IMG/VR virus record: IMGVR_UViG_2718218168_000006
Source: a virus
Taxonomy: Duplodnaviria; Heunggongvirae; Uroviricota; Caudoviricetes
DNA length: 40,618 nt
Direction: 5' to 3' (one strand)
Position 1 is the first letter of the stretch. Each line of letters begins with the position of its first letter. Shown piece by piece: positions 1-36,288 of the stretch. The position numbers and the translations under genes were made by a program. The notes under the pieces are model-generated. The model worked only from the letters and a program-made list of their open reading frames with translations. It was not told the DNA's origin and ran no database searches.

Positions 1-582
1 TTACCCTATAGGTGCTACTGGCCATTCAATATCCGGTGCAGTTGATGTATCAACACGGTTCAGCAACACCCGATACTTTTTCCAGGCTTCCAGCAACAAG
101 GTTTCTTCCTCCGTTGCGATTTCCAGATCTACAGCATCCTGAAGTGGCGCAATATGCTCACTGGCTACCTGCATCAGGCTGTTTTTTGTTTCTTCCGCCT
201 CCCGGATCCGGAACAGTTTTTCTGCTTCCGTATCCTTCACCCAGGCTGTGCCGTTCCACTTCTGATATTCCCCTCCCGGCGATAACCAGGTAACATTTTC
301 CGGTAACGGACCGAGTTCAGAAATAAATAACGCGTCGCCGGAAGCCACGTCATAAACCGTTTTACCCCGATGATCTTCAACGAGATGCCACGATGCCTCA
401 TCACTGTTGAAAACAGCCACGAAGCCTGCCGGAATATCTGGCGGTGCAATATCGGTACTGTTTGCTGGCAGACCGGTATGAGGCGGAATATATGCGTCAC
501 CTTCACCAATAAATTCATTAGTTCCGGCCAGCAGATTATAAATTTTTATGGTCCGTGGTTGTTCAGTCATTCTGAATGCCAT
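1..582 (-). CDS. tfa: tail fiber assembly protein (lambda Tfa-like)
   Basis: 193 aa ORF starting [20 protein letters not shown], near-identical in pattern to lambda Tfa; its start overlaps the stf stop. Confidence 0.85.
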
Positions 583-25066: not shown

Positions 25067-25141
<75 letters not shown>

Positions 25142-25144
25142 ATA

Positions 25145-25220
<76 letters not shown>

Positions 25221-25222
25221 AC

Positions 25223-25299
25223 TGGACCGCCACCGGGGACTCGAACCTCGCACACTCAACTTAAAGGGTTGACGCTCTTTCCTGATGAGCTAGTGGCGG
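25223..25299 (-). tRNA. atypical tRNA (anticodon loop CCTTTAA, apparent anticodon UUU; C at position 33)
   Basis: 7-bp acceptor stem CCGCCAC/GTGGCGG, T-loop TTCGAGT, encoded CCA; C33 and one T-stem mismatch make identity uncertain. Confidence 0.4.
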
Positions 25300-25300
25300 T

Positions 25301-25376
25301 TGGTGGCCCTTGCTGGATTTGAACCAGCGACCTGGCGATTATGAGTCGCTCGCTCTCACCACTGAGCTAAAGGGCC
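25301..25376 (-). tRNA. tRNA-Ile2/Met (anticodon CAU), ileX/ileZ-like
   Basis: GGCCCTTTAGCTCAGTGGTGAGAGC..CTCATAA..GGTTCAAATCC..AAGGGCC-A-CCA; resembles E. coli ileX. Confidence 0.7.
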
Positions 25377-29985: not shown

Positions 29986-30141
29986 TTACTCCTCAGGTTC
30001 GTAAGCTGTGAAGACAGCGACCTCCGTCTGGCCGGTTCGGATTCGTACCTCGCAGAGGTCTTTCCTCGTTACCAGTGCCGTCACAATGACGGTAATACAG
30101 ATGACGATCAGGGCGACTAACATCGCCTTTTGCTGCTTCAT
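29986..30141 (-). CDS. hok: Hok/Gef family type I toxin
   Basis: 51 aa MKQQKAMLVALIVICITVIVTALVTRKDLCEVRIRTGQTEVAVFTAYEPEE, near-identical to HokD/RelF as I recall it; AAGGAG RBS. Confidence 0.85.
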   Translation of the reverse strand: MKQQKAMLVALIVICITVIVTALVTRKDLCEVRIRTGQTEVAVFTAYEPEE

Positions 30142-30352
30142 AGCCTGCTTCTCCTTGCCTTTCGGCACGTAAGAGGCTAACCTAGATTTGCCGTTCATAG
30201 ATTGAGCCTCAGATTAATGTTAAGCGTCTTGCCGGACGCGTAATGTTAACTGGGGCTTTTCTCTATCTGCCTTTTGGTGTTCATGCCTGAGACAGATAGC
30301 CTCAAGCACCCGCTGCAATTCTACTTAACTCTCCTTTTCCCGCAAACCGTTT

Positions 30353-31914: not shown

Positions 31915-32333
31915 TGCGCTACCTCCGGAAAATTACCCTGATAGAAAGCCAGTACACGCTGCATAGCTTCGCTCTTCCGGCACTCGCGACAGATTATATT
32001 CAGGCGCCTGTCGTAGCGACGTATTTCTCCGTCAGGTAATGACCAGATAAGGTCCGGATCAACCACAACCGGTTTCTTCAGCTTTGCCCTCGATAATTTT
32101 TTGCGGGCATTTTGCCAGTCTTTACGAGCCTGTTCAGACGGGAATAACCCGTAGCCAGAATTGTATACATCGCCACTGGCAACCAGCTCTCTGGCGAGAA
32201 CACTCATCAGATATCTTGTCGCACCTGTTTTCGCTTCCAGTTGTCGTAACGTTTCGCGCCCGCTCTGGCGCACGAGTTCAACAACCTGCCTCTTAATTTT
32301 TTCCCGCTCTTCTTGTGTAAATACTTTTGCCAC
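31911..32333 (-). CDS. hypothetical protein
   Basis: 140 aa ORF between O-like gene and methyltransferase; coupled to MTase start. Confidence 0.6.
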   Translation of the reverse strand: MAKVFTQEEREKIKRQVVELVRQSGRETLRQLEAKTGATRYLMSVLARELVASGDVYNSGYGLFPSEQARKDWQNARKKLSRAKLKKPVVVDPDLIWSLPDGEIRRYDRRLNIICRECRKSEAMQRVLAFYQGNFPEVAQ

Positions 32334-32373
32334 AAGTCCTCCTGAAAATTACCTCATGACCTGAAATAAACAC

Positions 32374-33444
32374 TTACCCCCTGAAGCCCGGTGGAATTTC
32401 GGTATCCGGTTCAGAAATATGATTCACACAACGCTGGTTGTTCGTGCCGCTTACCGGGAGCAACCAGGGGTTTTCAAAATTCCGGTCCGGTCCAAAAAAC
32501 GTCGTCGCTCGCTGAACAAATTCCGTTCCCGTTTTCCCGGTAGCCGCTAGGTATCTTGCGTAACGCCTCACACCATCCAGCATGGCCTCTGGTGGCACCC
32601 CCTCGCGTAATCTGGCCTTCCAGGCACTGAAAGCGGATTTCTTCGGGTTTGCCCCGGCACGCAACGGGTATTCCCGCCAGACCTGTTCGAACACATCCGG
32701 ATAATCCACTCGTCCCACAGGCTGCCCGGTGTTTTCCGGGACTACCCGATCGGCTTCCCGCTGAATGGCGGAATCGGCTTCAGGCTGCTGCAGTTGGTGT
32801 GATTGCTCCGGCCTTGCGGTCATCACCTGCTGCACAGCGCCCGAATCGGCTTTCAGCGCATACGCTGAATCGGCTTCCGGTGTCGTGCCTGCTGGCTGAC
32901 CAGGATTGACGGTCTGAACATCCCCTGCCTGGTTCGTGGCATTTTTTACGCCATGGACCATAGTGTTTTGATCTTCTTGATCTGTATCTTTATCTGTATC
33001 TTTATCTGTCGTGACTCGTCGTGACATGTGCGTGACATTTCGTGACGCGCCGTGACAATCTCCATTTTGTTCCCGCTTTCTTTCCCTCTCTCGCTGCGCC
33101 CTCTTGCGCTCTGCAGGAGATTTTGCGGTTTGCGAAATATTGCCGTTGTCCTCTTTAAGCACCTGGCGTTTTTCCCATCCAGTGATTAAATCACCATCAA
33201 GTACCCGCCCCTGCATCGTCTGCAAAATTGAATCAATTACCTCTTCTGTCACGTCGAGCGCACTTGCCAAATCTTCTGTCGTGACATCAATGTGACCTCG
33301 CGTGACATTTCGTGACGCGCTCACCAGGAGGTGGATATACACTGCCATCACTGTTGCAATTGGCTGCCCTGACACCCTGGCAATTGTTCGCCACTTAGGG
33401 TCATTTGGCATGTCATGCCATAATCTGAGCCAAGCGTTAGCCAT
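32374..33444 (-). CDS. replication initiation protein (lambda O-like role; N-terminal HTH, DnaT-like C-terminal region); contains the presumed origin
   Basis: ORF MANAWLRLWHDMPNDPKWRTIARVSGQP..; ATG at about 33444 after GAGG; iteron clusters lie inside the coding sequence. Confidence 0.7.
   Translation of the reverse strand: MANAWLRLWHDMPNDPKWRTIARVSGQPIATVMAVYIHLLVSASRNVTRGHIDVTTEDLASALDVTEEVIDSILQTMQGRVLDGDLITGWEKRQVLKEDNGNISQTAKSPAERKRAQRERERKREQNGDCHGASRNVTHMSRRVTTDKDTDKDTDQEDQNTMVHGVKNATNQAGDVQTVNPGQPAGTTPEADSAYALKADSGAVQQVMTARPEQSHQLQQPEADSAIQREADRVVPENTGQPVGRVDYPDVFEQVWREYPLRAGANPKKSAFSAWKARLREGVPPEAMLDGVRRYARYLAATGKTGTEFVQRATTFFGPDRNFENPWLLPVSGTNNQRCVNHISEPDTEIPPGFRG
33009..33060. 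repeat. iteron cluster 1: five CGTGAC repeats at about 10-bp spacing, preceded by tandem tatctgtatcttta repeats
   Basis: Read directly: gtgactcgtcgtgacatgtgcgtgacatttcgtgacgcgccgtgaca. Confidence 0.7.
33279..33320. repeat. iteron cluster 2: four GTGAC repeats at about 10-bp spacing; shares an identical 20-mer with cluster 1
   Basis: gtcgtgacatcaatgtgacctcgcgtgacatttcgtgacgcgc; 20-mer cgtgacatttcgtgacgcgc also at 33031-33050. Confidence 0.7.
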
Positions 33445-33515
33445 ACTCACCTCTTCTGATACCGAATCTTTTTACTCACGAGTTGCCGGAAGCGATTCGA
33501 TATGGCTATTGTCAG

Positions 33516-33941
33516 TCAATGTACTGCCACAGCATTTCCTGCCGGGCCACCACGGTTCATCTGATTGAAACCGGCGATTGCCACTGCGACAAAATCATCA
33601 GCGTCTCTCACCAATCGCTCCCGCGTCTCCACCAGCTCCCGAAAATAAGCTGAACTGTGGCTGCGCATTCTGGCCACCAGCAAAGGTGGCATTGCCTTTT
33701 CGATCGCTGGTAACAACGCCTGAATTTTTTCAACTGCATCAGGGGTGTCTTTCTCTACCCAGCGGAAAATTTTCTGGGTATTGCGAGCCAGGGCTTCCGG
33801 ATGGCTGTCGTCATACAGTTCAGGAAACGTCATACCCAACTCAAAATAAGCCTGGGTTATTCCAGCTGCTGGAACTTTTTCGCCATCAGGACGCGCCCAG
33901 GCATTCATCGCCATGCGGATGTGTTCATGCTTGATTTTCAT
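33516..33941 (-). CDS. ydaT: YdaT-family protein (described as toxin or CII-like regulator)
   Basis: 141 aa MKIKHEHIRMAMNAWARPDGEKVPAAGITQAYFELGMTFPELYDD.., matches Rac YdaT as I recall it. Confidence 0.8.
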   Translation of the reverse strand: MKIKHEHIRMAMNAWARPDGEKVPAAGITQAYFELGMTFPELYDDSHPEALARNTQKIFRWVEKDTPDAVEKIQALLPAIEKAMPPLLVARMRSHSSAYFRELVETRERLVRDADDFVAVAIAGFNQMNRGGPAGNAVAVH

Positions 33942-34168
33942 GAATCCCCCCCTTGGTTAGAAGGCGGATTATGATCAGAACCGGGAATGACAACCGTCGG
34001 TATGTGTAACTCATATTTGAGCGCCCCGGCAGTGACTGCCTGAATTAGCAACGCCCATTTCCACGGAACCTCTTCCCCCCACATGCTGACTGTGGTTTTT
34101 GACGTTCCTAGAGCTGCGGCTGTTTTAACAACTCCGCCAAAATAGCCTAATACTTCTGATTTTTTCAT
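33938..34168 (-). CDS. ydaS: Cro/YdaS-like HTH regulator
   Basis: ORF MKKSEVLGYFGGVVKTAAALGTSKTTVSMW..; ATG at 34168 after GGAG; divergent from the cI-like gene. Confidence 0.75.
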   Translation of the reverse strand: MKKSEVLGYFGGVVKTAAALGTSKTTVSMWGEEVPWKWALLIQAVTAGALKYELHIPTVVIPGSDHNPPSNQGGDS

Positions 34169-34259
34169 AAGTCGCTCCATAAAACTGAACGCCAAAAGTT
34201 TAATAATCAAAACCAAAGAAAGTCAAGAAACAAAACCATCTGTGTTTTAAAATCAAAAC
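34169..34259. promoter_or_regulatory. divergent promoter/operator region between cro-like and cI-like genes
   Basis: Repeated GTTTTG/CAAAAC half-sites including near-palindrome TGTTTTAAAATCAAAACA abutting the cI ATG, and GTTTAATAATCAAAAC; candidate -35 TTGACT on the minus strand. Confidence 0.45.
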
Positions 34260-34898
34260 ATGAGCAAGCAAACAATATCTGAACGCATAACCCAACGTAT
34301 GCATGCGCTAAACCTGAAAGGCAAAGACCTTGTCAATGCCACTGGCGCATCAAAAGGCTCCGTAAGTCAATGGATGAACGGTGGAGGAGCGCCGTCCTCG
34401 CGTTACATAAGTTCACTGGCAAAGATATTGAAAGTAAACGAAAATTGGCTTCTTAATGGAGGAGAGTTAAATACAGGTGATTCGCTTGATCTATCTTTAC
34501 CGCCGATAAAAACGGTTCCGCTACTATCACTTCAGCAGGCAGCAAGCTGGAGTGATTATATGAAAAATTCCTCAATAACCTCTTGTGTGCAGCTTGTCGG
34601 AGAAATCCCGGCCAATACCTTTGCAGTTGTTCTAGAGAGTGACAGTATGTCAACATCTGGTGGGGGAGTTTCCATCCCAAATGGTTCAACAGTTTTTGTT
34701 GATCCCGATCGAACCGTACAACCAGGAAATATTGTCCTTGCCTTACCCAAAGGGACCACAACACCTGTCATTCGTAAACTGGAGATAGAAGGGCCGGATA
34801 TTCTTTTAGTCCCCACGAATCCTCGCTATCCTTCAATTATGCTGGATGATCTATCTTGCATATTGGGCGTATGCTTTAAAATTCAACAAGATATTTAA
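34260..34898 (+). CDS. cI: CI-like repressor (N-terminal HTH, C-terminal S24 LexA-type peptidase domain)
   Basis: 212 aa ORF; HTH region and Ser-Lys dyad context (ESDSM..K); no SD upstream of ATG. Confidence 0.85.
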   Translation: MSKQTISERITQRMHALNLKGKDLVNATGASKGSVSQWMNGGGAPSSRYISSLAKILKVNENWLLNGGELNTGDSLDLSLPPIKTVPLLSLQQAASWSDYMKNSSITSCVQLVGEIPANTFAVVLESDSMSTSGGGVSIPNGSTVFVDPDRTVQPGNIVLALPKGTTTPVIRKLEIEGPDILLVPTNPRYPSIMLDDLSCILGVCFKIQQDI

Positions 34899-35724: not shown

Positions 35725-36288
35725 TAGCTAACCAACGAAGCTAAGGTTGGTAATTAAGGAGTTCTCCACGGGTGAGGTGGAGTGCGTGTGCCGGACATGG
35801 GTGAGCATCCGGCACTGACAGTTTACTGAAAGGATATGTCCCTGAAAAGTCAGGGCATAACGCGAAAGCGCACGGCGAAATTGGTCTCTCTGTACGGTGT
35901 CGTTAAATTTAGTTCGACCGTGCGCTTCCGGTTGTGGCACTCCGCGAAATGGCGCGGAGGTAAGTATGGCGGGGTTATTCCTTCCCCGTTGAGGACACCG
36001 GGTTGTCAGGTTGACCATACGCTTAAGTGACAACCCCGCTGCAACGCCCTCTGTTATCAATTTTCTGGTGACGTTTGGCGGTATCAGTTTTACTCCGTGA
36101 CTGCTCTGCCGCCCTTTTTAAAGTGAATTTTGTGATGCGGTGAATGCGGCTAAGCGCACGCGGAACAGTTAAAACCAAAAACAGTGTTATGGGTGGATTC
36201 TCTGTATCCGGCGTTAATTGTTAACTGGTTAACGTCACCTGGAGGCACCAGGCACCGCATCACAAAACTCATTGTTGAGGGCGCGATA

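Follow-up and report, generated by a model that had tools for sequence, protein, structure and literature searches.

Two arrays of short direct repeats inside an initiator gene form the predicted replication origin of a lambdoid prophage

The DNA analyzed here, referred to as the window, is a 40,618-nucleotide stretch of a tailed-phage genome in which a gene for a replication initiator includes two clusters of the hexamer CGTGAC. The locus raises the question of whether these repeats are sites in the DNA or only a property of the protein that they encode, what factor reads them, and why there are two clusters instead of one. Our answer is that the region is probably the vegetative replication origin of a lambdoid prophage, located inside the gene of its own initiator.

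The program that listed the open reading frames started the initiator gene at a GTG at position 33450, and the homologues and the RefSeq protein WP_001262367.1 support the ATG at 33444 (MANAW..., 356 aa). The product showed a full-length match to PHROG 3729, "replication initiation protein" (E about 5.5e-258, aa 3-358 against positions 1-356 of the 356-position profile). From the N-terminus, it consists of a winged helix with a DnaD-NTD-like fold, a basic helix, a disordered linker, a helical C-terminal domain and, at the very end, a tail that resembles DnaT. No Pfam family was assigned to the ORF, and a PDB sequence search with the N-domain returned chance-level matches only. In RefSeq the members of this family are labeled "phage replisome organizer" and often "hypothetical protein". 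The gene also includes a peptide repeat, PEADSA, encoded by three copies of GAATCGGCTTC in a single reading frame. The genes that precede the initiator gene are a divergent one for a cI-like repressor (Peptidase_S24 plus HTH), a P22_Cro-type gene and, at the cII position, a gene of the YdaT family. The next gene after the initiator gene is of the DUF977 type in the window, as it is in E. coli G749 and phage Tritos.

The hexamer CGTGAC is found on the + strand at 33010, 33020, 33031, 33041 and 33051 (spacing 10, 11, 10 and 10 bp) and again at 33280, 33301 and 33311, with the copy TGTGAC, identical at five of six positions, at 33291 (spacing 11, 10 and 10 bp). These positions confirm the two clusters at about 10-bp spacing inside the initiator gene that a preliminary description had reported. 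The coding-strand form of the hexamer is GTCACG, and in gene coordinates the copies start at nt 129, 139, (149) and 160 and at nt 389, 399, 409, 420 and 430; we refer to the two groups as the upstream and the linker array, respectively (Table 1). The remaining 19 copies are scattered over the 40.6-kb window. The maximum number of same-strand copies per 50 bp was 5, compared with 1 in 243, 2 in 56 and 3 in one of 300 first-order Markov simulations of the window. The clusters were said to be about 270 bp apart and to share an identical 20-mer; an exact 21-mer, GCGTGACATTTCGTGACGCGC, was indeed found at 33030-33050 and 33300-33320, where by chance none is expected, and the 11-mer TCTGTCGTGAC is common to both arrays at the same offset of 270 bp, or 90 codons. 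Tandem Repeats Finder detected a 10-bp array at 33008-33057 and, in agreement with the tandem repeats noted before beside the first cluster, a 12-bp unit, TCTTTATCTGTA, present in 2.9 copies at 32975-33009. The claim that the repeats are translated (ASRNVT; DKDTDKDTD) also held, since the translation of the minus-strand ORF includes SASRNVTRGHIDVTTED and GASRNVTHMSRRVTTDKDTDKDTDQ (in an alternative extract, the repeat-bearing peptides are ASRNVTRGHIDVTTED and ASRNVTHMSRRVTTDKDTDKDTDQ), and DKDTDKDTD is encoded by the 12-bp tandem repeat. The upstream array encodes aa 43-55 (ASRNVTRGHIDVT), a segment of the winged helix made up of the last part of helix 1 and the beta-1 loop, and a single inverted hexamer is located 26 bp downstream, in the direction of the gene, of its last direct copy.

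Table 1. Features of the initiator gene, listed in the direction of transcription (positions are those of the window)
Feature	Coordinates	Strand	Description or basis
Replication initiator gene, 356 aa	32374..33444 (stop codon included)	-	ORF, PHROG 3729 match, homologues, RefSeq, AF2 models
Upstream (putative auxiliary) array	33280..33316	-	3 exact GTCACG and one 5/6 copy, GTCACA; spacing 10/10/11
Inverted hexamer, single copy (GTCACG on +)	33248..33253	+	Encodes part of D64-V65-T66
Basic-helix coding region	33064..33126	-	aa 107-127, AKSPAERKRAQRERERKREQN; AF2 helix 110-130
Linker array (candidate core iterons)	33010..33056	-	5 direct GTCACG, 10/11-bp spacing; encodes aa 130-146 (CHGASRNVTHMSRRVTT)
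AT-rich tract, candidate DNA-unwinding element	32945..33009	-	Coding strand purine-rich; contains the 12-bp tandem repeat and two GATC sites
Mosaic junction	32969..32987	.	N-module (DNA-binding domain, both arrays, AT tract) meets exchangeable C-modules
DnaT-like C-terminal 25 residues (ISEPDTEIPPGFRG)	32377..32451	-	BLASTP versus K-12 DnaT

The linker array is followed by a tract in which the G+C content falls to 0.275 (32960-32999) from 0.55-0.65 in the flanks, and the least stable 40-bp segment of the gene, starting at 32966, has a dG of -44.7 (gene mean -58.7, sd 3.8). The sequence GATCTGTATCTTT resembles the oriC 13-mer GATCTnTTnTTTT, with a match at 11 of 13 positions. The upstream array has no AT-rich tract of its own.

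Successive hexamers rotate through all three reading frames (2, 0, 1 and so on) and are translated as SR, VT and CH, and as a consequence the ASRNVT and CHGASRNVTHMSRRVT peptides are by-products of sites that lie one helical turn apart. To analyze selection on these sites, the codons of 27 GTCACG-class homologues, whose genomes range from 34 to 69% GC, were aligned, and the conserved 4- and 6-fold degenerate ones were compared. The third-position entropy was 0.25 bit inside the hexamers (n = 9) versus 1.61 outside (n = 36; Mann-Whitney p = 1.2e-5). Two codons counted as outside had zero entropy: G50, located in the degenerate third repeat, and V65, located in the inverted copy, where its GTG codon is invariant. 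The frozen codons of the upstream array are A43, S44, V47, T48, G50, H51, V54 and T55; in the linker array the entropy is about zero at S141 and V144, and the codons of the DKDTDK repeat (GAT, AAA) are nearly frozen too. Neighboring sites are separated by 10 bp in 86 of 109 steps and by 11 bp in the other 23. The use of all three frames and the frozen synonymous positions, together with the AT-rich stretch alongside, indicate that the repeats behave as DNA-level sites and not as peptide repeats. At least three direct repeats in helical phase under DNA-level selection and an adjoining, easily melted AT-rich element, the generic attributes of an iteron origin, are thus both found at this locus.

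To place the arrays in a wider context, 52 homologous loci from Gamma-, Beta- and Alphaproteobacteria and Acidobacteria were compiled from a scan of one genome per species and from phages. One of the two search patterns, [AG]S[RQ]NVTRGH, is itself encoded by the iterons and enriches for GTCACG-class members; the other, MPNDPKW, is not, and it supplied the other hexamer classes. The comparison of iteron number across relatives, proposed in the preliminary description, showed that the number of sites varies. Both are present in 25 GTCACG-class genome loci. The linker array, with two to seven copies, occupies the same position of the gene in almost all homologues, and GATAAA, GATACA or GAAGAA repeats come after it. 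The upstream array has three to six sites, in a count and phasing that match those of the core array, and it is conserved over a range that takes in E. coli, Pseudomonas, Bordetella and Acidobacteria; an in-frame insertion adds sites to it in E. coli FDAARGOS_1286 and E. albertii (TTCHGVSLHG). An exact inverted copy is found at the equivalent position of the gene (nt 192 or 180) in many GTCACG-class loci. In the Pseudomonas phage phita81A, whose N-domain is 69.5% identical and whose C-domain is unrelated, GTCACG occurs four times at nt 129-160 and another four times at nt 388-418, after which comes GATAAAGATACAGAAGAAGAG. Lineages differ in how far apart the arrays are, from 240 to 350 bp, so there is no fixed helical phasing to support looping. 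Five loci, one from Acidobacteria, one from Alphaproteobacteria and three others, have no upstream array and keep the linker array, with up to seven copies, and a purine/AT-rich simple repeat.

The identity of the hexamer changes among these lineages, and it does so in both arrays. Six loci have GTAACG/TAACGC in both, in a phase that avoids the reading frame that would give TAA, and eight have CGAACG/GAACGC in both. When region A (nt 96-250) and region B (nt 321-520) were compared, the same hexamer was found two or more times in each of them in 38 of 49 loci, versus 14 of 628 control placements of the same geometry elsewhere in the loci; the control placements never exceeded 2 + 3 copies. Since within each lineage the same hexamer is present in both arrays, these must presumably be read by one factor with a specificity that changes between lineages. 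The second cluster had been regarded as a possible duplicated array. That part of the description was not upheld: the cluster is conserved from E. coli to Acidobacteria and its hexamer switches in step with that of the other, and it can be considered an ancient, co-evolving array and not a recent duplicate. Its absence from the most divergent lineages leads us to rank it as putatively auxiliary.

Which part of the initiator would contact the bases is less clear. The canonical recognition helix of the winged helix (aa 66-77) is acidic and lacks any class-specific residue, and for this reason the DNA-reading surface is uncertain. Outside the residues encoded by the iterons, positions 114 and 117, which share a face of the basic helix, show the strongest tie to iteron class: K/Q accompanies GTCACG, V/(Y,F) accompanies GTAACG and A/W accompanies GAACGC; the mutual information with class is 1.1 of 1.32 bits, a value that is confounded by shared ancestry and to which four loci (L029, L038, L042 and L048) are exceptions. 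The winged-helix core (aa 1-42 and 56-100) is 60-76% identical to that of the window whatever the iteron class, and within aa 1-100 systematic differences between classes are confined to the peptide encoded by the upstream array, aa 43-55. The class-independent core and the association of positions 114 and 117 provide a lead: the basic helix is a candidate base-reading element, and the loop 43-55 may be a specificity determinant too. A bolder proposal, to which we give rather little credence, is that the 43-55 peptide belongs to the DNA-reading surface together with residues 114 and 117, so that a change in the sites would alter their reader in the same mutational step, and that both arrays are needed in cis as a looped two-part origin. 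If the loop did help to read DNA, the initiator family would have a built-in path to new, orthogonal origin specificities, of which three classes are seen.

The region has a modular structure. Partial megablast matches span either positions 3-596 or positions 614-1077 of the query only, and protein alignments diverge directly after DKD(T)DK. Because the similarity to relatives with other C-domains ends inside the AT tract, the DNA-binding domain, both arrays and the tract appear to constitute one mobile specificity module, which recombines as a unit with different C-domains. The DnaT-like family PF17948, absent from the window protein, was found in 9 of 49 homologues with a different C-domain. 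The combination of the linker array and the purine/AT-rich tract is nearly universal and ends exactly at the mosaic junction, and on these grounds it is the predicted core origin. Among the genes located downstream at 45 loci, 10 are lambda P-like, 5 DnaB-like, 4 IstB/DnaC-like and 1 G39P-like; such helicase or loader-type genes are the context expected for an origin-binding initiator. A near-identical gene (98-99%) is present in isolated temperate phages, including Tritos, Evi and vB_Eco..., and the gene is found at a coverage of at least 80% in 1,646 of 5,426 complete E. coli genomes, about 2,500 of which have the initiator module. Prophages of several phyla include the module.

We infer four elements of a mechanism: which protein reads the sites (the initiator), where the DNA unwinds (the AT tract), what the upstream array does and how the helicase is recruited. 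Through the winged helix and the basic helix, protomers of the initiator would bind head to tail to the asymmetric (T)GTCACG(M) hexamers, and at 10-11 bp per site they would line up on one face of the DNA helix. The loaded five-site linker array would then open the adjoining purine-skewed AT tract, aided by supercoiling and by early rightward transcription through the gene, and the C-terminal domain and the DnaT-like tail would bring in the helicase. No helicase loader gene follows the initiator gene in the window prophage or in phage Tritos, and the window prophage is therefore presumed to use the host DnaB-DnaC; in relatives, a partner gene of the P, DnaC or DnaB type is present. At the C-terminal end of the initiator, 25 residues align with the very end of K-12 DnaT, 15 of them being identical (60%; E 1e-7, BLASTP), and match NCBIfam NF002770 with an E of 0.0015; the window protein shows no match to the full-length DnaT domain (PF17948/NF002770) beyond these residues. 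The same tail is found on homologues with unrelated C-domains, and the review consulted made no statement on its function. Together, the tail and the missing loader hint at direct use of the host DnaB-DnaC. The upstream array and the inverted copy, 270 bp upstream of the core, would be read by the same initiator and act as an auxiliary site that most simply cooperates or loops with the core array to form a larger origin complex; this cooperative or looping role in a two-part origin is the one that we favor. No DnaA boxes were found in or near the initiator gene, a promoter and terminator scan of 32200-34400 gave results at chance level, and a scan against Rfam identified no family in the region. 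A second, distant hexamer cluster, comparable to oriR of SPP1, was found neither in the 40.6-kb window nor within 3 kb in the homologous loci.

Other explanations of the repeats were considered. They could have no function at the DNA level and be peptide repeats, products of slippage or an RNA-level element. ASRNVT and VT do recur in the protein, and the offset of 270 bp keeps the 21-mer in frame; the hexamers, however, are read in frames 0, 1 and 2 as VT, CH and SR, synonymous sites are frozen specifically inside them, and the linker that bears one of the arrays is otherwise unconserved and disordered. Frame rotation and the frozen synonymous sites rule out a peptide repeat, the true case of which is illustrated by PEADSA, which stays in one frame, and the result with Rfam adds nothing in favor of an RNA element. 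We find this explanation scarcely credible. It is also very unlikely, if a little less so, that the hexamers are read by a protein other than the initiator, such as a host factor or a phage regulator of the Cro, YdaT or DUF977 type. The acidic recognition helix would fit another reader. Against it, N-domain and arrays stay together across Gamma-, Beta- and Alphaproteobacteria and Acidobacteria even though the neighboring genes differ, the iteron class shifts within the initiator family in correlation with residues of the basic helix, and the region lacks DnaA boxes.

A more serious alternative to the two-part origin, possible although in our judgment doubtful, is that the origin consists of the linker array and the AT tract only and that the upstream array and the inverted copy serve in negative control. 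The initiator, bound 130-200 nt into its own gene, could stop that gene from being transcribed and thereby hold down its own level, or it could pair origins ("handcuff") and limit initiation, as happens in iteron plasmids that have extra or inverted iterons. In plasmids, the operators through which Rep proteins regulate their own genes carry inverted iteron copies, and the conserved inverted copy 26 bp from the upstream array agrees with such a role, as do the lack of an AT-rich tract beside this array, the divergent lineages that drop it and yet keep the linker array and the tract, and the unconserved spacing between the arrays. On the other hand, the promoter scan gave no conspicuous candidate in or near the upstream array, the early operon is already governed by cI and Cro, and the origin of a phage in lytic growth has little obvious need of copy-number restraint. 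The number of upstream sites (three to six) and their phasing, as in the core array, also fit a cooperative, positive role.

Defining these sites permits a predicted origin to be annotated in a very common prophage type. A search, within the accessible library, for GTCACG/CGTGAC iterons, replisome-organizer prophage origins and reviews of replication modules found none described for the PHROG 3729-type initiator family; older reviews of such modules in subscription journals, which this library does not cover, may list similar predictions. The three natural specificity classes with their candidate specificity residues could be used as orthogonal replicons, and they offer a system to study the co-evolution of initiator and site when the sites are located in the initiator's own gene. 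They are also a case in which the constraint of binding sites dictates protein sequence, through the CH, SR and VT peptides, the in-frame insertions of extra sites and the avoidance of the TAA frame. The missing loader and the DnaT-like tail suggest a route for hijacking the host DnaB-DnaC.

By analogy, the arrangement can be considered functionally similar to those of lambda, P22 and SPP1, with an origin inside the initiator gene and iterons followed by a DNA-unwinding element. As in lambda (and in the P22 gene 18, phi80 and 434 types), the predicted origin is placed where the DNA-binding N-domain gives way to the C-domain that recruits the helicase; the iterons of lambda are at nt 349-433 of O in the lambda annotation and the linker array at nt 389-435. 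Also shared with lambda are an AT-rich, strand-skewed tract on the 3' side of the iterons, an initiator gene placed after cI, cro and cII in the early right operon, and an N-domain and origin that form one specificity module recombining with other C-domains. The lambda origin is different in that it has one cluster of four 18-bp sites at 20-24 bp spacing, and these sites are bound by dimers. In place of dyad sites of 18-19 bp at that spacing, the window has asymmetric direct repeats of 6-7 bp every 10-11 bp, in two arrays, one of them within the very sequence that codes for the DNA-binding domain, and it lacks the P-type loader gene that in lambda lies directly downstream and that has a counterpart in 10 of 45 relatives. 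The preliminary description had called the initiator "O-like", which is apt for the layout and not for the ancestry: there was no match to Pfam Phage_rep_O even at E 10, and hhalign comparison of the N-domain profile with lambda O returned nothing (probability 0.1%). The term is best taken as one of analogy, not homology.

The oriL of SPP1, consisting of repeated AB boxes and an adjacent AT-rich DNA-unwinding element, is embedded in gene 38, the product of which binds it; oriL suffices for replication in vitro, and G38P has a second binding region (PMC5737612). The initiators share the DnaD-like fold of the N-domain and, through RefSeq, the name "phage replisome organizer". The profiles PF09681 (Phage_rep_org_N) and TIGR01714 aligned over their whole length to the window protein with 12.7 and 15.4 bits, below their cut-offs of 23.3 and 49.8, and the best match of this type among the homologues, in 1 of 49, reached an E of 0.0047. 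An hhalign comparison with the single G38P sequence gave nothing, and homology to G38P was not accepted on these sub-threshold matches; a remote relationship is possible. Judged by its fold, the window protein could plausibly belong to the SPP1 replisome-organizer family, but it does not reach the curated sequence thresholds. The second binding site of SPP1 is about 32 kb away from oriL, whereas the second array described here is 270 bp away within the same gene.

Iteron plasmids with a winged-helix Rep (pPS10, F, R6K, P1, RepA_N) have iterons of 17-22 bp outside rep and usually DnaA boxes, which are not present here. In the origins of SaPIs two sets of iterons flank an AT-rich region and the initiator is itself a helicase; in phage P4 the arrays, ori and crr, are kilobases apart. 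Like these, the window has two separate arrays of one short repeat (6-8 bp) and one initiator, the latter being the proposed reader; unlike these, it has its AT tract external to the two arrays, and coding sequence runs through both of them. The locus goes beyond the textbook cases in that a second array is conserved inside the coding sequence of the DNA-binding domain, in that both arrays switch together among at least three hexamer classes, and in that the sites visibly shape the protein, including the avoidance of the TAA frame.

The basic helix of the initiator was compared among the homologous loci from other genomes (L001 to L054), where the iteron class co-varies with residues 114 and 117 of this helix. 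These residues are K and Q, respectively, in the GTCACG class, V and Y or V and F in the GTAACG class, and A and W in the GAACGC class; L029, L038, L042 and L048 are exceptions. The 'recognition helix' of the winged-helix domain has an acidic character and includes no class-specificity. The GTAACG-class arrays (L025, L028, L033, L036 and L044; approximately nucleotides 130 to 460 of the gene) show that the array of binding sites of this class is shaped by coding constraint: the hexamer is limited to two frames, those in which TAA is not read, the spacings are 11, 20, 21 or 30 bp, and the gaps are taken by variant hexamers such as GTGACG.

A close variant of the N-module found in the window is present in L002 (coordinates 1939-2979, E. 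coli FDAARGOS_1286) and L005 (E. albertii), which have an in-frame insertion, TTCHGVSLHG, consisting of extra hexamer sites in the winged-helix loop. The C-domain joined to this variant is DnaT-like (PF17948), and a lambda P-like gene lies downstream. In L047 (Serratia) and L053 (Pantoea), the same N-domain is joined to a different C-terminal part, starting YVY(Y/F)V...GIS..NPWAR, and at the junction (approximately nucleotides 320 to 470 of the gene) ACTACG/CGTAGT repeats in both orientations replace the direct hexamer array. A weak Pfam match to MUG113 (E 0.0036) was found in one of 49 initiators scanned; the output does not name this initiator, which is possibly that of L047 or L053.

The sequence GAATCGGCTTC is found three times in the C-terminal module, at 32771, 32843 (one mismatch) and 32867, always in a single reading frame. 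In contrast to the iterons, these copies are a true peptide repeat, PEADSA, located in the disordered linker and shared by phage 75/02 Stx. Up to four copies of the initiator module are found per E. coli genome, and many database entries of the initiator gene (protein matches P0002 to P0038) are 'partial' and located at contig ends; this shared module is apparently a point where assemblies of short reads break. Other prophage cargo is listed in the table.

Features of the window
Feature	Window coordinates	Initiator residues	Remark
IS009 RNA	41-239		left end
Four-tRNA cluster	25067-25376		Gly-tcc, Thr-tgt, Lys-ttt, Met-cat
sok antisense RNA	30136-30311		hok/sok
DnaT-like tail	32377-32451	332-356	match to K-12 DnaT end
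PEADSA repeat	32771-32877
AT-rich tract	32945-33009
Basic helix	33064-33126	107-127	compared in L001-L054
DicF sRNA	36063-36114		sRNA

The extreme C-terminus of the initiator, RCVNHISEPDTEIPPGFRG, and that of E. coli K-12 DnaT, RDVNTVSEPDSQIPPGFRG, both ending at the stop, are identical at 15 of 25 positions (E 1e-7), and the same tail also terminates homologues whose C-domains are otherwise unrelated. Since no P/DnaC-type loader gene was found in the window prophage or in phage Tritos, this tail may recruit the host DnaB-DnaC. GATC (Dam) sites occur twice in the AT-rich tract, 11 bp apart, and the unit of this tract, GATCTGTATCTTT, bears what we take to be a loose likeness to the oriC 13-mer consensus, GATCTnTTnTTTT.
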